A stretch of 64,000 nucleotides of DNA. Origin: a virus. The notes beneath the pieces were generated by a model, which did no database searches, was not told the origin of the DNA, and saw only the letters and a list, made by a program, of their open reading frames with translations. Position numbers and translations under genes: made by a program. The stretch covers positions 40,994-104,993 of IMG/VR virus record IMGVR_UViG_3300046786_000748; one strand, given 5' to 3'. Below, one piece after another: positions 25 through 17,549 of this stretch; positions within the stretch are counted from its first letter, which is position 1; the number at the start of each line of letters is the position of its first letter.

Positions 25-2577
25 ATGGCAGTCGTCTATTATCCAAAACAATCTATAGTTCTTAAAAGAGACACGGTTAGTGCATCTTTTGAACAAGTTG
101 TTTTAAATACCACACCAAATACAATTCTCTATTTTGGTTCCGGTTCTCTCTCTGAAATATCCGGCTCTACAATTTACATTACTTCTAGTCACGCCCTAAC
201 TGCATCTTATCTCATGGGGTTTATAGAATCCGCTTCATTTGCTTCATTCGCTTTAAGTGCCTCATGGGCTCCTTCAGTTCAAAGCGAAGGTTCTGTTTCG
301 TCATCGTGGGCTAGTTCAAGTTTATCAGCAAGTTATGCTACACTTGCTTTGAACTCCATCAATGGAAGCGTATCCGCTTCTTATGCTTTAACTGCATCAT
401 ACTCGTCGAATGCCTCTTCGGAATCTTCTAGTTACGCACTTACAGCAAGTTATGCTTTAAATGGCGGTTCTGGTGGAACAACACTAACAACGGGTTCTTT
501 TTATCCAATAACTTCAAGTTGGTCGGTTTCAGCAAGTTGGGCTCCTAGTTCTCAAACAGTTGCATCTGTATCATCATCTTGGGCTAGTAGTTCACTGAGT
601 TCTAGCTATGCTATTTTAGCTTTAAACGTAATTAATGGTAACGTTTCTGCATCTTATGCGTTATCAGCATCCTATGCACCAAGTTCTCCATCTGTTTCTG
701 CTTCATATGCTTTAAGTTCTTCATATGCACCATTCACACAAGTTTATCAATCCAACACAACATCGGCAAGTTGGGCTAGCAGTTCTTTAACAGCAAGTTA
801 TTTACCTCCTGGAAATTATGCAATAACTTCTTCATGGACGACAAATTTACCACCCCATACTGCTTCATGGGCAGGGAATGCAATAGTTTCAAATACAAGT
901 TTATATGCTTCTCAATCTCAGTGGTCAATTTCTTCAAGCTATTCTTCTGGTTCTACTACAGCAGTAACAGCTACAAACCTCGGATTAACAGCTTATAATA
1001 TTTCTGTAACCTTTGCTTCTCAAAGTCAATTAGCTATCACTTCATCGTGGGCAAGCAGTTCACTATCTTCATCATTTGCTATAAGTGCAAGTTATTCTGC
1101 ATATCTCTATTACAATGTAACGCAATCTTTAACTCTTATAAGTTCAGCTTCGTGGGCTTCAGCAAGCTTAAGTTCAAGTTACTTAACTCCAGGAACATAT
1201 CAAATAACTTCGTCCTGGGTTACAAACCTTCCTGCTCATACAGCTTCTTGGGCTGGTAATGCGAACGTTGCTAATACAAGTTTATATGCTTCTCAATCCA
1301 ACTGGGCTATATCTTCCAGTTATGCTTCAGGATCTACAACGTCAGTAACTGCAACTAATCTAGGGTTAACTGCTTATAACATAAGCGTAACTTATGCTTC
1401 GCAATCAAGATGGGCTATATCAGCAAGTTGGGCTTCAAGTTCACTTACATCAAGCCACTTGCCTCCTGGAACTTATCAAATAACTTCTTCTTGGGCTGGA
1501 AATTCAATAGTATCAAATACTTCTTTGTTTGCTTCACAATCACAATGGTCAGTTTCATCTTCGTATGCTACGAGTTCAACCAGATCCGACGTAAGTTTAG
1601 TTCAAAATACAGGATCTAATGATACGTCATATTTGACGTTTGTTTTAAATACAGGAAGTTATCAGAACAACTACGTCACAACATCAATAACTGTTAATGC
1701 TGGATTGGGCAGATTAACTGCCACAAGTTTTACAGGAAGTCATTTCGGAAATACAATAGGAACGTCAAGTTGGTCAGTTTCAGCTTCATGGGCTCCATCA
1801 AACGGTGTTGTAAGTTCAGCTTCGTGGTCTTCAGCAAGCTTAAGTTCAAGTTACTTAACTCCAGGAATTTATTCAATAACTTCATCGTGGGTAGTTAATT
1901 TGCCTGCTCATACAGCTTCATGGGCAGGAAACGCAATAGTTTCAAATACAAGTTTATACTCTTCACAATCTCAGTGGAGTATATCTGCTTCATATGCTTC
2001 AAGTTCAACAATTGCTAATACAGCTACAACAGCTACTAATCTTGGATTAACATCTTATAATATTTCTGTCATTCACGCTTCGCAATCTCATTGGGCTACT
2101 TCAGCAAGTTATGCATCAAGTTCAACATCCGCTTCTTATGCTACACTTGCTCTCAATGTATTGAACGGAGGAGTTTCTTCATCATACGCATTATCTGCAA
2201 GTTATGCTCTTAATGGTGGTGGTGGACCAAGCATTTCTTCATCATACGCATCTACTTCTAGTTGGGCAAGTAATTTAGTAATAACATCTTCCGCACAAAC
2301 TACCGGAAGTTACATCTTAGTTAGCGATGATAATGGTAAAGTAATTACATTCCAAAATGCTACAACTAATAGCATTGTTATTCCAGCTTCATTACCAACG
2401 AATTTTAACTGTTTTTTGGTATCAGTATCTACCAGCAGTGTACAAGTTACTGGATCTGGTGGTATTCAACTTAATAATGCTAATAACTGTTTCAAGTTAA
2501 GTGGAAGATATTCAGCCGCTTCCATTGTTGGATACTTGCCAGAAAAATACATTCTATTTGGTGATGTTTCTTTATGA
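25..2577 (+). CDS. Ser/Ala-rich repeat tail-fibre-like protein
   Basis: 850 aa built from SASYA/SSSWA repeats plus longer internal repeats (PAHTASWAGN..VSNTSLYASQSQW). C-terminal ~85 aa globular domain (LVSDDNGKVITF...YILFGDV) of a type seen at fibre ends. TATTTATA at 13-20; ATGA overlap with next gene. Confidence 0.7.
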   Translation: MAVVYYPKQSIVLKRDTVSASFEQVVLNTTPNTILYFGSGSLSEISGSTIYITSSHALTASYLMGFIESASFASFALSASWAPSVQSEGSVSSSWASSSLSASYATLALNSINGSVSASYALTASYSSNASSESSSYALTASYALNGGSGGTTLTTGSFYPITSSWSVSASWAPSSQTVASVSSSWASSSLSSSYAILALNVINGNVSASYALSASYAPSSPSVSASYALSSSYAPFTQVYQSNTTSASWASSSLTASYLPPGNYAITSSWTTNLPPHTASWAGNAIVSNTSLYASQSQWSISSSYSSGSTTAVTATNLGLTAYNISVTFASQSQLAITSSWASSSLSSSFAISASYSAYLYYNVTQSLTLISSASWASASLSSSYLTPGTYQITSSWVTNLPAHTASWAGNANVANTSLYASQSNWAISSSYASGSTTSVTATNLGLTAYNISVTYASQSRWAISASWASSSLTSSHLPPGTYQITSSWAGNSIVSNTSLFASQSQWSVSSSYATSSTRSDVSLVQNTGSNDTSYLTFVLNTGSYQNNYVTTSITVNAGLGRLTATSFTGSHFGNTIGTSSWSVSASWAPSNGVVSSASWSSASLSSSYLTPGIYSITSSWVVNLPAHTASWAGNAIVSNTSLYSSQSQWSISASYASSSTIANTATTATNLGLTSYNISVIHASQSHWATSASYASSSTSASYATLALNVLNGGVSSSYALSASYALNGGGGPSISSSYASTSSWASNLVITSSAQTTGSYILVSDDNGKVITFQNATTNSIVIPASLPTNFNCFLVSVSTSSVQVTGSGGIQLNNANNCFKLSGRYSAASIVGYLPEKYILFGDVSL

Positions 2578-3803
2578 TCAACCACGGTTCAATTACTGCT
2601 TACTTAGATCCAGATGCCGCTAAAATTAGAAATGATGTATTAGCGGCAAGTGGTTCTGTTTCTAATTTCGGTGAATTAAATACTGCTTGGAAAAATTTGA
2701 ATAGATGTTTGAATTTGAGTTCGTCCGTTGAAAAATATGTAGCAACAACTACAAATGGATATGAATTTCTTGCCGCATTAAGCCAAAGTATATTAGCTAT
2801 TACAACTTCTGATAGAATAGATACACAAATAACAAGCAGTGTTGGTAGTGGTGGTGGAAGTTCTACTTTACGTCCTATCTTGTGTCCAGATGGTACTATC
2901 TATTGTCCACCTTACGGTGCTACTAATGCTGGATATTATTATTTACCTGATACCAATCAATTCTTTACGGCTTCTGGTCAAGCAGCCGTAGCTGCTAATC
3001 AATATGTAAGTGCCGTGTTACAGCCAGATGGAAAAGTATTTTGTGTTCCTTATTCGATGACAGCAAGTCGTGTATTTGATCCAGCAACTAAATCGGTTGT
3101 GTTTAAAGGTAAGTTCGCTGGTGGTGGACAATTTGCTGGTGGTGTTCAACTACCAAACGGTAAAATATTTTGCAATCCGTATAATGGCACAAGAGCAATT
3201 ATATGGGACCCATTAACCGAAACTTCCAGTTCTTCCGATGGTTTAACTTATTCTGGCAGTGCTGCGTCACATGGTTGTGTATTGGCGGCAAATGGTAAAG
3301 TATATTCAATTCCATTTAACGCAACTAAAGTATATGTTTATGACTATAGAACAAATTTAACAACTACTGGAAGTGGAACATATGCTGGTAGTCAGGCATT
3401 TTTAAGCGGTGTATTATTACCTAATGGTAAAATATTTTTCCATCCTTGGCTTTCAACATCAGCAAGAATATATGATCCAGAAACGGATATAGTGACTACA
3501 CCAGCACCAACATTTCCGGGAACCAGCGGATATCTTGGCAGTGTGTTAATGCTTGATGGAAGAGTTATATTAATTCCATCTAATCAATTAAGGCCCGGTT
3601 TTTATAATTACACAACAGATACTTATTCAACTGGTTCGGTAGCTTGGCACGCTGGGACATTTGGTTTTTATAGTGGTGCGTTAATGAAGAATGGAAAAAT
3701 ATTTGCTTGTGGTTATAATCATGTACGAAACGAAATTTTTACACCAAATTATGTTAGTGCATCAAGCACACTAGCATTATCAACATTTTTAAACAAAGCC
3801 TAA
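2574..3803 (+). CDS. Beta-propeller repeat protein, candidate receptor-binding protein
   Basis: About 7 repeats of xVLxPNGK(I/V)(F/Y)xxPY...IYDP; lies between fibre gene and chaperone-like gene. Confidence 0.6.
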   Translation: MINHGSITAYLDPDAAKIRNDVLAASGSVSNFGELNTAWKNLNRCLNLSSSVEKYVATTTNGYEFLAALSQSILAITTSDRIDTQITSSVGSGGGSSTLRPILCPDGTIYCPPYGATNAGYYYLPDTNQFFTASGQAAVAANQYVSAVLQPDGKVFCVPYSMTASRVFDPATKSVVFKGKFAGGGQFAGGVQLPNGKIFCNPYNGTRAIIWDPLTETSSSSDGLTYSGSAASHGCVLAANGKVYSIPFNATKVYVYDYRTNLTTTGSGTYAGSQAFLSGVLLPNGKIFFHPWLSTSARIYDPETDIVTTPAPTFPGTSGYLGSVLMLDGRVILIPSNQLRPGFYNYTTDTYSTGSVAWHAGTFGFYSGALMKNGKIFACGYNHVRNEIFTPNYVSASSTLALSTFLNKA

Positions 3804-4313: not shown

Positions 4314-5192
4314 TTAAACTCTTGGTGTAAAATTAACAGGGTCATAAATAGCTGTCATTTCTTTAATAAACGGTTTCATTACTTCATCTTTTAATGCTTC
4401 CTGAAAACAGTCTTCCCAAGATTTTACTTTTGGATTTCCAATCTCGTTTAATTCAGGATTGTTATGAATTTCCCTAGCTTTTGAAGCCCATTTGGAAGCA
4501 GCCTGTGTTCTCCACTTGTCTTTATCACCACTCTTTTTGTTTCTAAAAGTCAATTCAAAAGATAATTGTTTACCATTCTCAAATATAGCAGAAATTGATT
4601 GACTTCCTTCATGTACAAACCACCCATCTCCCTGTCTAAAACTTTCATTAATTGGTGCTGTTTCCTGAGTTTCCCTAGACATCCCCTTCCAATCAGAATG
4701 GTCTACACCCCAGTTTTTAACATAAGGTTTCATTCTTTCACTACTTAATGCTTCGACAAAACATTCTTTCCAAGATTTTCTTTTGAAATAAGGATCATTT
4801 GGATCTGTTGGACGAATTCTTGAGTTGTGTAGTCTATGAATCTTTTGAGTTTCAATCATCCACCTTCTAACCGCCTTTTTACCCCACTCTTGTATCTTTC
4901 TAAACTCCGGTCTGTAAGGACCAATAGAATTACCAACCAATTCTCCAAGTTCTTGTGGATATTGAACTTCAAACCAAATTCTTGCTTGTTCTCGGTGATA
5001 TCCCTCAGGACCTATGTAAACACAAGCACCTGTAGTTCCACTTTCCCAATCATTTGCTCCTTGATAAGCAGACCAACCATTCCCCTGTTCAAACATATCA
5101 AAATTTTCAGGAACACGAAATGGTTTGGCGTCTTTAGACGACACAAACCCAGGAACATAGAGTTCTTCTAAAAGGTGTTTTAAGTGAATCAT
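4314..5192 (-). CDS. Hypothetical two-repeat protein with MIxLKxLLxE leader and capsid-like C-terminal peptide
   Basis: N-terminus MIHLKHLLEE; two homologous halves (QGNGW..KSWKECFVEAL..MKPYVK and QGDGW..KSWEDCFQEAL..MKPFIK); ends YDPVNFTPRV. Confidence 0.8.
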   Translation of the reverse strand: MIHLKHLLEELYVPGFVSSKDAKPFRVPENFDMFEQGNGWSAYQGANDWESGTTGACVYIGPEGYHREQARIWFEVQYPQELGELVGNSIGPYRPEFRKIQEWGKKAVRRWMIETQKIHRLHNSRIRPTDPNDPYFKRKSWKECFVEALSSERMKPYVKNWGVDHSDWKGMSRETQETAPINESFRQGDGWFVHEGSQSISAIFENGKQLSFELTFRNKKSGDKDKWRTQAASKWASKAREIHNNPELNEIGNPKVKSWEDCFQEALKDEVMKPFIKEMTAIYDPVNFTPRV

Positions 5193-5193
5193 A

Positions 5194-5997
5194 TCAAATT
5201 ATAAATATCGGATTCTTATTACAAAACTCGTCTAATGCTTTGAATAATTCAACATTATTAGCCCACTCCTTAAGTGGTTTCTGTTCATCTTCCGGATTTT
5301 CATCCGAAACAACAGGTTCTTCTTCTGGCTCTTGTGGAGTTTGCATCGGATCATCAACAGGTTTTGTAGCTACTGTAGGTTCTAGTTCTGGCTCAGGAGT
5401 TTGAGTTGGATCAATCGGTTTTTCCAATTCTGGCTCAGGTTCTTCTGGTGGTAATTTTTCCTTGGGAGGAGTTGTTGGAACAGCCACAGGAGTTTGATTG
5501 GGTGGTTGTGTTGGGTCGGGAGAAGGAACAGGTTCGCCTTCAATATTAGTTCTTAAATACTCTTTTAAAGCAATAAGATGTTTACAAAGACCAGGACCAC
5601 GGTTAATAGAAGATGGATAGTTCAATCCTTTGTTCAAACTACCAGGACCGTTTTCACCTGCGTCTTGTTGTTTATTAGCATAACTAAATCTAAACCTATA
5701 ATCAGGACAACTGCAATCAACTGAACAAGGAACTTTCATTGCGTTATCGCCAGGATTCATTTCTTCTTTGTAAAAATAAATAAACCCTTGGTGTCTCAAT
5801 CCCGTAGTATTTTCGTCTCTAGGAGTTTTATAAGAAAATTTCCAAGCCTCTCTGTCGTTTATAGATTTAGCTACAAGAGATTTTGCTGGGATTCTATTCG
5901 CTCTGTCTTTTCTAGCAGAATCAGAAGCACGCATGAGATCTTCATAAGACATTTTCTCAACAAGCATTTCTGAAATTAATGAACGAAGTTTAATCAT
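5194..5997 (-). CDS. SWIM-type zinc-finger protein with Pro/Glu-rich tail
   Basis: CSC-PDY...GLCKHLIAL (CxC..CxH) motif; leader MIKLRSLISE. Confidence 0.7.
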   Translation of the reverse strand: MIKLRSLISEMLVEKMSYEDLMRASDSARKDRANRIPAKSLVAKSINDREAWKFSYKTPRDENTTGLRHQGFIYFYKEEMNPGDNAMKVPCSVDCSCPDYRFRFSYANKQQDAGENGPGSLNKGLNYPSSINRGPGLCKHLIALKEYLRTNIEGEPVPSPDPTQPPNQTPVAVPTTPPKEKLPPEEPEPELEKPIDPTQTPEPELEPTVATKPVDDPMQTPQEPEEEPVVSDENPEDEQKPLKEWANNVELFKALDEFCNKNPIFII

Positions 5998-5998
5998 A

Positions 5999-6556
5999 TT
6001 AGTTGAATCCCAATCTCATAACCATCGTTGTTAAAATTGGACATTGAAATTTGTTTTTATCATAATACATCCATTCAATAGTACCTTCACTATCAAACTT
6101 AGAACCATCTCCTGTTTTTTTAGAAGGTTCTTTATCACCAACATCAACTGCGTATAAATAATAAATAGTATCTGTTGATTTAGTACCTCTACAAGTTCCC
6201 AATGATTTCAAATCTTTCTCTTTTACTTCATATCCACTTTCTTCTTTAATTTCTTTTACAGCAGTTTCTTCAGGAGACATGCCTTTTTCACAACCACCTG
6301 TCAAAGCAGATAAGTTCTTTTCTTTCCCCCAAGCAGGAGTAACTTCTTTTCTAACCCCATATTCCCACGCATCCCTACCTTTTCTTCTATACAATAAAAC
6401 CCCTACTATTTTACCCTGACAACGTTCTTCGTGGAGATAAAAATAACCATCTTCGTCTTTAACAAGTTTAATTTTTTTAATGGAAATCCACTCGTTTTCA
6501 TAAACGGTTTCTTCTTTTTTATTTCCTTCACAGAGAAGATGTTTTAACTTAATCAT
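5999..6556 (-). CDS. Nudix hydrolase
   Basis: Nudix box GGCEKGMSPEETAVKEIKEESGY; leader MIKLKHLLCE. Confidence 0.85.
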   Translation of the reverse strand: MIKLKHLLCEGNKKEETVYENEWISIKKIKLVKDEDGYFYLHEERCQGKIVGVLLYRRKGRDAWEYGVRKEVTPAWGKEKNLSALTGGCEKGMSPEETAVKEIKEESGYEVKEKDLKSLGTCRGTKSTDTIYYLYAVDVGDKEPSKKTGDGSKFDSEGTIEWMYYDKNKFQCPILTTMVMRLGFN

Positions 6557-6572
6557 AAATCAAATATAAATA

Positions 6573-7340
6573 TTACGATATTAACTCGTTCTTAAGTTTT
6601 CTTTTATGATACTTTACAGCACTTATACTGATTTTATATTTTGTTGAAAGTTGAATAATTGTATGTTGGTCGGATAAAATATCTTTAATTAAGTCCGATT
6701 TAATTTTCTTTAAAATTTGTTTATTGAGTTTTATTTTCTGTTTGTTTTCTTCTGACATTGGACCCAAAACCATTCCGGACCTTCGGTTTGGATTACTGTA
6801 GTTCATTGTTCTATTTTTTAACATAATTCGCCGATCATTAAACTTTTGTTGACCCACTTCTTTTCCATATTTGTTTGTAAACCACTCCATAGAGAACCTA
6901 CCCTTCGCTTTTTCTTTTTGTAGTTGTTTGGATTCCTCTGTGTGGTTTCTGCCATACATAGGATTGTTTTCACCTAATGAAATAGTCCTCATTTTTTCAA
7001 TAAACACATCTCTATTTGGATTATATGTTATATTATCACCACCGTTGGCTGTCGGACATATGTTATATCCGATATCTCTCATGTAAGGTTTAAACAAATC
7101 CAGATAATGTTGTTCTCTATCCAAGAGAATAATTTTTTCCGAAAGAGTTTCTTCAACAATTTCAAACAGGAATTTATCGTTGCCATAAAAATCCCAGGCG
7201 TGTTGAAGTTTTGGGTTTATATGATATCCACCATTTAGATATTGTTTGTGTTCTTCCCACCTATAATCTATATCTTTAGCAGAACCGATATAAAATTTTC
7301 CGTTAACAGTATTAGTTATTTTGTAAATTCCACTTTTCAT
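6573..7340 (-). mobile_element. Free-standing GIY-YIG (Seg-like) homing endonuclease gene
   Basis: GIYKITN...FYIGSA, RW..H, EQ..LD, GYN; NUMOD3-like NPMYGRNHTEESK; C-terminal HTH; directly downstream of the capsid gene. Confidence 0.9.
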
Positions 7341-9262: not shown

Positions 9263-10552
9263 TTACTTTTTCGCAGGAATACCAGCGAGCTTCTGGAATC
9301 TCTGTGCCATCTGATTAACACCTTCGGTGATAACCTCTTTAGATGGTTTCGTTGACGCTACAGGCTTGGATGCTGCACCCTCGGTGATCGTAGTAACTTG
9401 ATTGATTGGGTTCTGCGAGAGAGCCTTTCTCTTCAAGTTTCCACCAAGATTTAATGATTCACACCAATTTGCGTATGTCATCTTAACTTCACGAACGCAT
9501 TTTGTAAGATCAAATGCTTCCACGACCTTTGTTTTTTGGTCACGGTTCATACCAAACTCCTTAAACAGCTTGTTCGTGTAAAGCAGTTTTGCGTTTAGTA
9601 GATTGATCTCATTAAGTTGTTTCTGTAAATACTCTACAGTCTTGTAGGCTTCATTACGTTCAGAAGTTACTTCATTAAGTTGAGTTTGAAGAGCAACGGT
9701 TTCATCACACTTCTCTTCCTTATCGTCTTCTTCCTTCTCTTCTTCCTTCTCTTCTTTAGCCTCTTCATTGAGACTTGCGAGTAATTCATTCAAATCAATT
9801 TCTTCCTCTTCCATAGGAGCTGGTTCCTCAGTTGGAGGAGCACCGGCGTCTGGTCCACCCATTGGAGGAACTTCGCCGCCTGGAGGAGGAGGCGTTCCAC
9901 CAACAGGAGCTTCAACCTTAGAAATTACAACAGTGTCACCACTCTTGATTTCTTGAGATTCTTCGCCTGGGGTTTCTTCGCCTGGAACTTCATCGTCACC
10001 TGGAACTGGAGGTCCGCCGGCGTCACCACCTGGAACTGGAGGCATGTCATCCATAGGAGCAGCACCAGCTTCGGCTTCAAGCTCACGAATAATTTCATCC
10101 AAATCTTCGTTTGTTACAGTTTCTTCAACTGATTCCTCTTCAACAGCACCTTCTGTTGCGTTTTCTTTAACTCCTTTGGGAGTTCCGTCAAATGCGTTAC
10201 CTTTGTTATCCTTAGACCAACCTTTGGTTCCATCTCCACCGTCTTTAGCAGAAGGAATTGTGTTTGGGGTGATGTTTTTATCGGTAGGTTTTGGACCTGC
10301 GTTGTCTTTAGACCAACTCTTAGTGCCATCGTTCTTAGATGGTTTTGCATCCTTTGGTTCTACAGTTTCAGCAACAGGGGCATCGACTGATGGTTGGGAT
10401 TCGGTTGCAGAATCTTCTCTCAATTTATCTGCAAATACAGCCGAAAAACGACTGTTAAAAGCTTCCTCAAGGGATGCTTTAGCATTTGCTAATGCTGTGG
10501 CTCTAACGGCCTTTGCATCGGCAATAGCTTCTTTTAATAGATTACTATTCAT
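9263..10552 (-). CDS. Prohead scaffold/core protein
   Basis: Directly upstream of the capsid gene; acidic, Pro/Gly-rich disorder plus coiled coil (LNEINLLNAKLLY); many L/V-x-E sites; ends FQKLAGI. Confidence 0.8.
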   Translation of the reverse strand: MNSNLLKEAIADAKAVRATALANAKASLEEAFNSRFSAVFADKLREDSATESQPSVDAPVAETVEPKDAKPSKNDGTKSWSKDNAGPKPTDKNITPNTIPSAKDGGDGTKGWSKDNKGNAFDGTPKGVKENATEGAVEEESVEETVTNEDLDEIIRELEAEAGAAPMDDMPPVPGGDAGGPPVPGDDEVPGEETPGEESQEIKSGDTVVISKVEAPVGGTPPPPGGEVPPMGGPDAGAPPTEEPAPMEEEEIDLNELLASLNEEAKEEKEEEKEEDDKEEKCDETVALQTQLNEVTSERNEAYKTVEYLQKQLNEINLLNAKLLYTNKLFKEFGMNRDQKTKVVEAFDLTKCVREVKMTYANWCESLNLGGNLKRKALSQNPINQVTTITEGAASKPVASTKPSKEVITEGVNQMAQRFQKLAGIPAKK

Positions 10553-10728: not shown

Positions 10729-11436
10729 ATGCCCGCCAAAAGTGAAAAACAACGTAGATTTTTCTACTTGGTAAAAGCCCTTCAAAAAGGAAAGGTTTCA
10801 CCAAAAAGAGTTGGTAGTAAAGTTTCCAAAGCAGCATCATCTATGTCATCTAAAGATGTTGATGATTTTACTCATGGAAAAAACCTACCTAAGAAAAAAC
10901 TAGAAGAAATTATAGGAGTGTTAAAAAACTTATCGGCTAACGATGAAAATCCAGCCTTTCAAGATCCTGTAACCGATTTAAGAACAGGAGTTGCGAATCC
11001 AGATTTAACTTTGGAAAACCAATTTGATGATCCAAATCAAACCGAACAAAACCCTATAGCTAAAACTTTTAATCAACAAGGTAACTTTGAAGAATATATT
11101 GGAAAGTTTTCTGGACTAGAACTAAAACCGAAAGAAATAGAATCCATTACTAATTATACTAATGCTAAGCCTACTAAGATGGATAAATTCTTAGTTAGAT
11201 ATGAATCAACAGACGAGTTTAATAACAACACTATAACCGTAGTTAAAAAATTAAGAGAAGGCACAGATTTAGTATTTACTATTTTTCAATCATCTACACA
11301 ACAAGGTGGAACGGAACCTCAAGGTGAAGAACCAACAGGACAAAACGAAATTATAGTAACTAAATCTCGTTCGTTTGTTAATGAAATTGAAGGTGGTAAA
11401 ATTTTAGCAGACTTATTACAGAAATTGGACGTATGA
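10729..11436 (+). CDS. Hypothetical protein with DUF3008-like N-terminus
   Basis: MPAKSEKQRRF...SMSSKDVDDF resembles the DUF3008 pattern. Start moved from 10702 to ATG 10729; TATTTATT at 10696. Confidence 0.6.
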   Translation: MPAKSEKQRRFFYLVKALQKGKVSPKRVGSKVSKAASSMSSKDVDDFTHGKNLPKKKLEEIIGVLKNLSANDENPAFQDPVTDLRTGVANPDLTLENQFDDPNQTEQNPIAKTFNQQGNFEEYIGKFSGLELKPKEIESITNYTNAKPTKMDKFLVRYESTDEFNNNTITVVKKLREGTDLVFTIFQSSTQQGGTEPQGEEPTGQNEIIVTKSRSFVNEIEGGKILADLLQKLDV

Positions 11437-11801
11437 TAAAATTAAAACAACTACTAAAAGAAGTTGACGAGGATAAAAACTCAAACATTGCTTCTGTTGA
11501 AGATGAACGGGAATGGAAAATGCCCGATGTCGATCATATGCTTTCTATGAAATTTGAAAGAGAAGGAGATTCGGTTTTTATTCTAGCAAATCCAGCGATG
11601 AAGGTTTATAAGATAAAAAACGGACCTTTTGTTTTGGAAGAACCTATAGAAAATCACGAACACAATTTTCAAAAAGGAATTGTTTCACCTATAAAACCAC
11701 ACGGATTAGCAGCATTTAACCAAAGTAAACAAATCAAAAAGTATGAGTTTCCAACATTTATCAAACTCATAAGATTTTTCGATAACTATAAACAAGATTA
11801 A
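11433..11801 (+). CDS. Hypothetical protein with MIKLKQLLKE leader
   Basis: ATGA overlap with upstream gene; shared leader motif. Confidence 0.75.
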   Translation: MIKLKQLLKEVDEDKNSNIASVEDEREWKMPDVDHMLSMKFEREGDSVFILANPAMKVYKIKNGPFVLEEPIENHEHNFQKGIVSPIKPHGLAAFNQSKQIKKYEFPTFIKLIRFFDNYKQD

Positions 11802-11827
11802 GGATTTTGAACAATATTTATAAACGT

Positions 11828-12814
11828 ATGAAACTCAAAAAGATTGTAGAAAACATGGACAAAATGCCTTCGACATTGAAGGGATTTAATGAGTCGCCAA
11901 AACTTTCTCCTGAACAAAAGAGAAAATTAATGGAAATGGTAGGTCAATATAACACCCTCGGACAGAAATTAAGAATGGAAGGTGCTTTGATTGAAACTGC
12001 CACAGCTTTAGCTGAAATAGCCGAACTAGCAGAAACCTATGCTTGTAATGAAGCATCCGATTGGTTCGCAACTGAAGTGGTTAAAACCGATTTTAAACGA
12101 GCTAAGGGAATTACAGAAACATTTCAAAAACTCGCCCGTGAATGTCATGGTAAAGTTCAACAGTTGAATGCTCTTTATGAAGACATGGGACACATTCTTG
12201 GGCGTTATTATGAAATCGCCGACCCAATGGCCGAAGTCTGTCCAAATCCAACAAATGTTAAGAGTCAACGTGGTTTGCCAAATGCACAACCTCAGACAAT
12301 CATGCAGGAAGTTAAACCTAATGATAAAAATATCAAATCTCAAAGACAACTCCCATCCGGCGGTTCTGCTCCAACGCAAGTAAAAGAAGTTGCTGTTGAC
12401 GATAAACACGCAAACATCAAAGGACAACGTGAACTTCCTCACACCAACGGCCCAGCAACGCCTCAAGTAAAAGAAGTTGCTGTTGATGACAAACACGCTA
12501 ATGTTAAAGGTCAACGAGATTTGCCTTCTGGCGGACCTACTCCTTATCATCCACCAAAAGATCCACAAGATACCGGTTCAGTTAAAGAAGTAACTGTAAA
12601 TGATTCCAATCTTCAATCTCAACGTGAACTTCCACAAGGCGGTCCAGAAGGATATACACCACCCAAGTTAGAAAATCCAAGCCCAGAAGTAAATCCTGCT
12701 GGTGCTGGTGAAATGAATGTTAAAGGTGAAAGAGATGTTCCACAAGGAGGACCATCTAAAGATGTCGCTTATGAGTCTTTTAGATTCAAAGACATTCTAA
12801 AATCAATTAAGTAA
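11828..12814 (+). CDS. Helical protein with six C-terminal peptide repeats, putative internal head protein
   Basis: ATG 11828 follows TATTTATA (11815-11822); leader MKLKKIVE; repeats N(I/V)K(G/S)QRxLP separated by xxE-V. Confidence 0.75.
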   Translation: MKLKKIVENMDKMPSTLKGFNESPKLSPEQKRKLMEMVGQYNTLGQKLRMEGALIETATALAEIAELAETYACNEASDWFATEVVKTDFKRAKGITETFQKLARECHGKVQQLNALYEDMGHILGRYYEIADPMAEVCPNPTNVKSQRGLPNAQPQTIMQEVKPNDKNIKSQRQLPSGGSAPTQVKEVAVDDKHANIKGQRELPHTNGPATPQVKEVAVDDKHANVKGQRDLPSGGPTPYHPPKDPQDTGSVKEVTVNDSNLQSQRELPQGGPEGYTPPKLENPSPEVNPAGAGEMNVKGERDVPQGGPSKDVAYESFRFKDILKSIK

Positions 12815-16931: not shown

Positions 16932-17549
16932 TTAAACGATTTCACTGAAAATGTCTTGAATGATACTTTCTGCTGTAACCCATTTTCCGTTAATTGGGTT
17001 TTGTACAACTTGTTTTACACCTTCTGTTAAAGCACCAGATGGAAACATAAATGCTCCTCTTGTTGAAGGATTGGAAACAAAATCAAAAGCAATCAATTCA
17101 AAATCGTCTTGAACCTGATCAACACCTTCGGAAATTTTCTTAATAGTTCCAAGACCACGACTGGAAATTCCAAGACGAATGTTGGAACGGAAAAGTTCTT
17201 TCAAGATGTTACCGCTTGGAGTTCCAAGAACTTCAACGGTTCCCATAAGATCTTTACCTTCCCAATGCATTTCAATTATGTTATGGGAAACGTTTTTGAG
17301 GTTAACTACTTGAGATTCTGGATGATCAAGTTCACCAAGAGCACGTCTTTCTTTTATAAAACCCTCTGTATATTTTTGGGCCTCACGCATTAGAGTTTCA
17401 TATGGATAACTACGTCCATTTTGGTTTGTGGCTTCTGCACGCTGGAGAATGCCCTTTACAACGAATGGACCTTTACCGGATAAGGCTTCGGTAAGAGTTT
17501 GTCTCAAAGGTTCAAACGTTATTACGTCAATTAAGAGTTTCTTTTCCAT
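16932..17549 (-). CDS. gp21: Prohead protease, T4 gp21-like
   Basis: N.NGR.Y, ALGELDHP, VSHNI, TPSG.I, LGISSRGLG, FDFVSNPST. Confidence 0.93.
   Translation of the reverse strand: MEKKLLIDVITFEPLRQTLTEALSGKGPFVVKGILQRAEATNQNGRSYPYETLMREAQKYTEGFIKERRALGELDHPESQVVNLKNVSHNIIEMHWEGKDLMGTVEVLGTPSGNILKELFRSNIRLGISSRGLGTIKKISEGVDQVQDDFELIAFDFVSNPSTRGAFMFPSGALTEGVKQVVQNPINGKWVTAESIIQDIFSEIV

Follow-up and report, generated by a model that had tools for sequence, protein, structure and literature searches.

A conserved C-terminal tail matching the predicted P loop of the major capsid protein in giant, distant relatives of phage T4

An uncharacterised protein of a giant T4-like phage ends in a short tail that repeats a segment of the phage's own major capsid protein, and in relatives this tail is better conserved than the domain that carries it. 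The DNA in question, referred to here as the window, is the whole analysed stretch of 64,000 nucleotides and corresponds to positions 40,994-104,993 of the IMG/VR record IMGVR_UViG_3300046786_000748 (104,993 bp, estimated completeness about 30%). The protein, P0001, starts with a leader resembling the T4 capsid-targeting sequence (CTS) and ends with 14 residues containing the peptide YDPVNFTPR, which also occurs in the gp23-type capsid protein P0002 in a segment that by homology to T4 is the P loop. Short address peptides decide which proteins a phage head contains and where these are positioned. Those that are known bind either the scaffold (the T4 leader) or a pocket of the shell (encapsulins), while the tail of P0001 copies the capsomer-joining loop itself. 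Selection maintains it in a large and uncultured group of giant T4-like phages from aquatic environments, and our leading, though still tentative, explanation is that it is a portable peptide docking its carrier onto the capsid shell.

The nine residues YDPVNFTPR are common to the tail of P0001 and to P0002 (positions in Table 1). They are encoded by tat gac cct gtt aat ttt aca cca aga in the tail and by tac gat cca gtg aac ttc acg cca aga in the capsid gene, so that seven of the nine codons differ, all of them synonymously. A preliminary description of the window had reported this nonapeptide with its coordinates and synonymous codon differences, and every detail was confirmed. It is the longest exact peptide that P0001 has in common with the other six-frame open reading frames (ORFs) of at least 60 amino acids in the 105-kb contig, and a match of nine residues was reached in none of 2000 shuffles of P0001, where by our own estimate the expected rate is about 1.5e-4 per shuffle. 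Identical codons for the six core residues of tail and capsid segment number 0/6 in the window and 0-4/6 in seven other contigs. These differences, found in all eight contigs, rule out that the tail sequence arose from the capsid gene by gene conversion or by recent duplication of DNA. P0001 as a whole is not a capsid paralogue: it has no Pfam or PHROG match, a search of the genome with PF07068 matches the capsid gene only, and the AlphaFold2 (AF2) model of P0001 consists of beta-meander-plus-helix repeats.

The position of the peptide in the capsid protein was derived from T4. In HMMER alignments with solved chains, residues 538-555 of P0002 pair with the T4 gp23 segment ...tplrgsDPKNFQPvmgfktryg, and the motif D-P-V-N-F-T-P corresponds to T4 D463-P469. 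By this homology the shared peptide is the capsid P loop, the tip of the P-domain hairpin. At each quasi-threefold junction of the T4 head, three P loops from adjacent capsomers make a hydrophobic contact that provides the main inter-capsomer bonds, and the head-length mutations T457A, R460C and G461S map to the P loops around these axes (PMC9546572); the contacts are unchanged through capsid expansion (PMC9546572; PMC9958956). The positions of T457A, R460C and G461S lie just upstream of the equivalent of the motif. Relatives identified independently of the motif differ in positions 3 and 4 of the loop, which reads DPATFT in Flavobacterium phage immuto, DPQNFT in Microcystis phage Mel-JY01, DPNNFT in LR756508, DPVNFS in Rhodothermus phage RM378, DPESFC in LR756511 and DPKNFQ in T4. 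The capsid genes reached via the tail-bearing family (those of L002, L004, L006, L009, L133, L141, L144, L157 and others) encode YDPVNFTPRRG, or DPINFTPRRG in two cases. A pattern scan returned 121 capsid copies, which were found with the motif itself and are not usable to argue that the loop is invariant.

Homologues of P0001 comprise 19 proteins of a metagenomic protein collection and, in a profile search, 117 cluster representatives. Among 60 distinct metagenomic tails, D is retained in 59, P in 56, V in 54, N and F in all 60 and T in 56, and the chain ends exactly four residues past F in 55. The extraction pattern permitted D/N, P/S, N/D and F/W/Y at the respective positions, so that the search itself accounts for this near-invariance only in part. 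Three of the changes replace T by S, leaving N-F-[TS] in place. In alignment A2, conservation of the tail residues D, P, N and F stays at 90% or above where the domain falls to about 30% identity, and the tail is still present in homologues of about 28% identity, where it is better conserved than its carrier domain. Domain copy 2 and the tail together form the unit that the family conserves; the smallest relative (L002, 121 amino acids) is made up of the leader, one domain and the tail. Together with the differing codons, this supports selection on the peptide and not on the DNA, as the preliminary description had argued; the collection of homologues that it had suggested also revealed that distant members of the domain family lack the tail. 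In nine pairs of tail and capsid gene from the same contig, the capsid loop is always YDPVNFTPRRG, and the tails read DPVNFT, DPINFT, DPMNFT or NPVNF, followed by PRV, PRL, PRI, KSV, KCG, RMG or SHG. Divergent tails of the DSVNFT type were found in one viral contig, which has no capsid gene, and a metagenome scan for divergent pairs returned only pairs with the standard capsid loop.

More distant phages gave no further examples. A search with the domain profile in immuto, Mel-JY01, RM378 and two uncultured megaphage records returned nothing, the search not having been validated on a domain-bearing record. When the same five records were scanned for D-P-x-[NKT]-F-x-x-R, a pattern that misses the capsid loop of LR756511 because of its S, no second copy of the phage's own P loop was found in a plausible gene; the pattern had four additional matches, all either out of frame or within short frames running from stop to stop, and no C-terminus was among them.

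The P0002 capsid protein is 54% identical to that of immuto, 52% to that of Mel-JY01 and 39% to that of RM378, and complete related records measure 365-369 kb; these sizes and the presence of a gp21-type protease indicate a giant, distant T4 relative with T4-type head maturation. The preliminary description had assigned a MIxLKxLLxE leader to P0001, and this is indeed present, while three further ORFs of the window (5194-5997, 5999-6556 and 11433-11801) have similar starts of the form M-I-K-L-[KR]-x-L-[LI]-x-E. As with T4-type CTS proteins, a leader of about 10 residues ending in [LI]-x-E is therefore common to otherwise unrelated proteins, in a genome that encodes both a gp21-type protease (PF03420) and a gp23-type capsid protein (PF07068). 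P0001 also contains several internal [LI]-x-E triplets. Its AF2 model, built from a 72-row alignment, has a mean predicted local distance difference test score (pLDDT) of 80 and contains two repeats, in each of which a meander of four strands leads into one long helix and then two short ones. The tail is modelled as coil, and blocks of 10 residues over 271-292 average a pLDDT of 61-64 versus 91-98 for residues 191-270, so that the tail resembles a short linear motif on a flexible end. Loading-type peptides are likewise short, conserved and flexible C-termini outside a folded domain. A tblastn search with P0001 against 50,697 phage records gave no match, fold searches (PDB by Foldseek, BFVD, VIA-align) gave no convincing one, the best Z scores of 5.8 (Mediator) and 5.1 (PsiB) being within noise, and the ESM Atlas yielded no usable match.

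In a part of the family the motif is not terminal. The proteins L003, L004/L005, L007/L008, L009, P0025, P0028 and P0037 continue for about 60-140 residues, and all seven distinct fused forms have an [LI]-x-E triplet 1-5 residues past the motif (RLGE, RIGE, RLQE, RLEE, KQLAE). The T4 head protease gp21 cuts at L/I-X-E (PMC9026906, on the T4 CTS). Upstream of the tail such sites are less regular: the I-K-E pointed out in the preliminary description is present in the window phage, which encodes a gp21-type protease, but it is not conserved: of the 44 full-length homologues with a tail, 15 have any [LI]-x-E in the 30 residues before it. The proposed liberation of a 14-mer at this site is thus not general, and the conserved site of the fused relatives lies after the motif. 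In four fused proteins, the stretch following the motif has a weak, sub-threshold match to 2H phosphodiesterases and two H-x-T motifs. In L003, L004, L007 and L009 (e.g., L004:9830-10828), leader, domain, P-loop motif and [LI]-x-E are followed by a 2H-phosphoesterase-like domain with HHMTI and PHITL and a weak, sub-threshold tRNA_lig_CPD match. Judged from these motifs, the fused protein could be a packaged enzyme degrading cyclic or 2',5'-linked nucleotides. Cultured phages matched a fused relative of 320 amino acids only through its phosphoesterase part.

The tail is also found on other partners. In G003, a complete genome of 368,758 bp with terminal repeats, the sole non-capsid copy of the motif ends a protein of 261 amino acids (L165:745-1527) that has lost the usual domain, so that only its last 14 residues match the family profile; its N-terminal domain is 38% identical over 244 residues to P0044 (residues 7-239). 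This N-terminal domain (GEWWI...GDIGD.GHEG), which has no family match, also occurs in P0020 and P0044 and is inserted in P0010. N-terminal partners vary across the tail-bearing proteins, and by these arrangements the tail is portable between unrelated domains, as loading peptides are. Scans of whole records for D-P-[VI]-N-F-T, a pattern that variant tails such as DSVNFT escape, found the capsid gene and exactly one other gene in each of G002 (279 kb, about 79% complete), G003 and G004 (365 kb, complete), one non-capsid copy in the contig of the window and no match in a complete genome of 202 kb that belongs to a different capsid clade. In each of the 12 contigs with both genes, a distance of about 2-6 kb separates the tail or family gene from the capsid gene, and the former is usually located downstream on the same strand.

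Shell docking would account for most of these observations together: the identity of the copied capsid segment as the P loop, selection at the peptide level, the flexibility and portability of the tail, the [LI]-x-E sites past the motif, the single extra copy, the linkage to the capsid gene and a precedent in phage phiKZ. As in T4, the N-terminal leader would direct P0001 to the scaffolding core, and the P-loop copy at the other end would tie the carrier to the shell at or under the P-loop junctions during prohead building. In the fused relatives, the head protease would cut at [LI]-x-E past the motif and free the enzyme for injection, and the carrier would keep the motif at its new C-terminus. 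Three parts of this picture are inferences: P0001 enters the head, the protease cuts at these sites, and the tail binds to the shell. A predicted complex of capsid residues 60-575 with domain 2 and its tail scored 0.00 in both runs and was not used as evidence.

Several known systems resemble parts of this arrangement. Encapsulin cargo-loading peptides are located at the C-terminus of their cargo and bind the inner face of an HK97-fold shell. Like the tail, they are short, conserved, flexible and portable between unrelated cargo domains, but they do not copy a piece of the shell protein, while the tail belongs to a tailed phage with scaffold and protease and its binding is hypothetical. The CTS of the T4 proteins IPI-III and Alt, which is removed by gp21, shares with P0001 the short peptide, the location of its carriers in the head interior, the gp21-type protease and release at L/I-X-E. 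It sits, however, at the N-terminus of many proteins, probably binds the scaffolding core and does not stay on its carrier, whereas the tail is C-terminal, copies a capsid loop, is apparently retained and is found on one protein per genome. In P22, it is likewise the C-terminal end of a head-interior protein, the scaffold, that addresses the shell, but this end is a helix-turn-helix, whereas no helix is predicted after residue 275 of P0001 and the tail copies the capsid and not the scaffold. The inner minor capsid proteins gp93 and gp162 of phiKZ are processed by the head protease and pair by beta-strands with capsid subunits along capsomer boundaries near the threefold axes (PMC11297242). They match the proposed behaviour of P0001 as protease-processed jumbo-phage proteins attached to the inner shell by extended strands, but have no sequence relation to it and no reported capsid mimicry, and they are fibre-like in contrast to two globular domains with a 14-residue tail. 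The literature searched holds no description of the tail peptide or of P-loop mimicry, and a full-text search for the peptide returned only haemoglobin-derived peptides. If shell docking is true, it represents a new mode of attaching proteins to an HK97-type lattice, offers a handle on the tie between core and shell in very large heads, beside the T4 head-length residues, and provides a tag of 10-14 residues for loading or anchoring proteins in T4-type capsids.

Several points weigh against shell docking. The placement of the copied segment relies on T4 homology, since the AF2 monomer model of the capsid protein is too uncertain there (pLDDT below 50 at residues 525-556, P domain of low confidence) and was not used to place the loop. 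A normal threefold junction has all three P-loop places filled, which leaves no obvious seat for a fourth copy; it might sit at the inner face, along the open rim of the shell as it grows, or at the five incomplete junctions on the portal side that lack a penton subunit. The tail copies one strand end and the loop, not the whole hairpin, and perfect mimicry is not required, as several phages have a tail that departs from the loop of their capsid protein (I or M for V; KSV, KCG, RMG or SHG for PRR). By analogy with T4, where the 10-residue leader suffices for packaging, a second signal would need a reason of its own. Finally, a peptide that addressed cargo in general would be expected on more than one gene product per genome, and a general cargo tag was rejected for this reason.

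Among the alternatives, the one that survives best is that a third partner, one phage or host factor, reads the peptide in both proteins, so that the tail would recruit this factor and not the shell. We regard this as unlikely. Candidates are a chaperone, the head protease via a docking site, the portal, or an enzyme modifying the Asn of N-F-T. A flexible, exposed tail with six near-invariant residues at a fixed distance from the C-terminus is typical of a short linear motif, N-F-[TS] withstands the three changes of T to S, and the capsid loop is invariant across the clade, even if most of these loci were found with the motif itself. However, no candidate factor emerged from the analysis, T4 has Q in place of T, so that N-x-T does not hold for gp23-type proteins at large, and the known role of the P loop already explains its conservation in the capsid (PMC9546572).

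It is quite unlikely, in our estimate, that the tail acts as an assembly regulator, which would compete with real P loops, cap free capsomer edges against off-pathway polymerisation or set the geometry relative to the core; P0001 would then be a core accessory like T4 gp67 or gp68 and not anchored cargo. The residues just upstream of the motif control head length in T4 (PMC9546572), the gene lies in a head-assembly cluster near the scaffold and capsid genes in every contig with both, it is present in a single copy per genome, and the internal [LI]-x-E triplets of P0001 recall those of degraded core proteins. A competitor of an essential contact would, on the other hand, need tight dosing, and the fusions to 2H phosphoesterase cargo fit a carrier better. 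A rather improbable, more novel reading is that the tail is a surrogate P loop that completes junctions without a third capsid subunit, such as the five around the portal vertex or those at the edges of the growing shell, or equally that it is an injected antagonist of a host sensor reading the invariant capsid loop. In the first case, a non-capsid protein would have become a structural part of the lattice by mimicking a capsid contact loop.

Somewhat less probable again, in our view, is an immune decoy or antagonist, in which an injected protein displays the most conserved capsid loop in order to occupy or blunt a capsid-sensing defence. Defences that sense capsid proteins exist, as exemplified by Lit and CapRel, and an invariant capsid loop would be a good target for a host sensor; moreover, neighbours and fusion partners of P0001 (a leader-tagged NUDIX protein, 2H phosphoesterase cargo) resemble injected counter-defence enzymes. 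If the tail does address a host sensor, it points to a capsid epitope under immune surveillance. However, no sensor for the P loop is known, a faithful copy of a trigger is expected to set the sensor off and not to silence it, the family does not conserve a site that would free the peptide, assembled shells bury the P loop in their contacts, and the distribution of the tail has no defence-related pattern. The preliminary description had offered both a decoy of a host capsid sensor and docking during head assembly; nothing found speaks for the decoy, and docking, though still a hypothesis, fits the new evidence better.

Scarcely credible is the absence of any special relation, whether by coincidence of two turn-forming sequences or as a functionless leftover of an old capture of a capsid fragment: domain copy 1 ends in the loosely similar V-D-H-S-D-W-K-G and P0115 in VDVLDWKPKKDK, so that an older D-x-x-[DN]-[WF] domain ending may have existed, but the shuffles never gave a nine-residue identity, six residues are near-invariant in 60 tails of a protein that otherwise falls to about 30% identity, the tail outlasts the loss of the domain in G003, and the scrambled codons are not those of a recent copy.

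Table 1. Features of the window, with positions numbered from its first nucleotide.
Feature	Position	Strand	Remarks
Serine/alanine-rich repetitive protein, >850 amino acids	1-2577	+	SASWA/SSSYA repeats, fibre-like
409-residue protein	2574-3803	+	weak RCC1-repeat match
P0001, 292 amino acids	4314..5192	-	leader, duplicated uncharacterised domain (about 110 residues per copy), tail copying the putative P loop; ends in KPFIKEMTAIYDPVNFTPRV
C-terminal tail MTAIYDPVNFTPRV, residues 279-292 of P0001	4317..4358	-	follows IKE; YDPVNFTPR at 4320-4346; predicted flexible coil
Domain copy 2, residues 184-278 of P0001	4359..4643	-	conserved unit of the family; alignments and AF2
Domain copy 1, residues ~26-166 of P0001	4695..5117	-	ends in NWGVDHSDWKGM at the place of the tail of copy 2; alignments A1 and A2, AF2
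N-terminal leader MIHLKHLLEE of P0001	5163..5192	-	resembles T4 CTS; terminal L-x-E
Leader-tagged protein, 267 amino acids	5194..5997	-	CxC...CxH motif; C-terminal half rich in proline and acidic residues; weak SWIM match (E 0.03)
Leader-tagged NUDIX hydrolase	5999..6556	-	Pfam NUDIX 1.9e-08; leader MIKLKHLLCE
GIY-YIG/NUMOD3 homing-endonuclease gene	6573-7340	-	directly downstream of the capsid gene, before the leader-tagged genes
P0002, gp23-type major capsid protein, 575 amino acids	7495..9222	-	Pfam Gp23 (PF07068) 4e-77; aligns to T4 gp23 structures; contains TPLVYDPVNFTPRRGVMTRY
Putative capsid P-loop segment YDPVNFTPR, residues 539-547 of P0002	7582..7608	-	homology to T4 gp23
Candidate scaffold protein	9263..10552	-	acidic, coiled-coil-like, ends in RFQKLAGIPAKK; upstream of the capsid gene; role inferred
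335-residue protein	11807-12814	+	N-terminal part helical, then repeated VKEVAVDDKHANIKGQRELP-type units, Glu before each
gp21-type prohead protease	17037..17477	-	PF03420 (Peptidase_S77) 3.4e-27; genome 58030-58470

The genes around the tail gene include further candidates for packaging. The leader-tagged protein encoded directly upstream (ORF 5194-5997) has a domain that in P0046 is fused to the tail-bearing domain, with ...DCxCPDY[RK][FY]RF[AS]Y... common to this ORF and the N-terminal part of P0046 (alignment A5, by eye); the same CxCPDY motif is found at the start of P0070, and in contig L139 a homologue of this ORF precedes the tail gene. As far as these sequences indicate, the two genes are neighbours that have been linked by gene fusion in other phages. 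The NUDIX hydrolase is probably packaged and injected, since it has a head-targeting leader. P0033, a metagenomic relative, combines NUDIX and thymidylate kinase with a P0001-type domain. In L133, a 30-kb contig of a related phage, at least 10 consecutive genes at 12.4-19.2 kb encode products with MIKLK-type leaders, and this clade therefore seems to package unusually many proteins.

Many of the tailless distant members of the domain family are parts of large proteins in which the domain is joined to NUDIX, thymidylate kinase, LigT/2H phosphoesterase, InPase or RNA polymerase modules and to inteins. In the large metagenomic proteins P0034, P0035, P0060 and P0109, all with a P0001-type domain, inteins that contain LAGLIDADG endonucleases split the chain. 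P0109 (2230 amino acids) combines InPase, a P0001-type domain and a match to RNA polymerase Rpb1 domain 2, like a virion RNA polymerase polyprotein.

The candidate scaffold protein has no Pfam or PHROG family match, and its end peptide RFQKLAGI occurs in the scaffold only, no second copy being found in the 105-kb contig. The two genes at the start of the window converge on the head-gene block, an arrangement that is also found in L139. The 335-residue protein with its repeated units could be a head-protease substrate that is cut at multiple sites.

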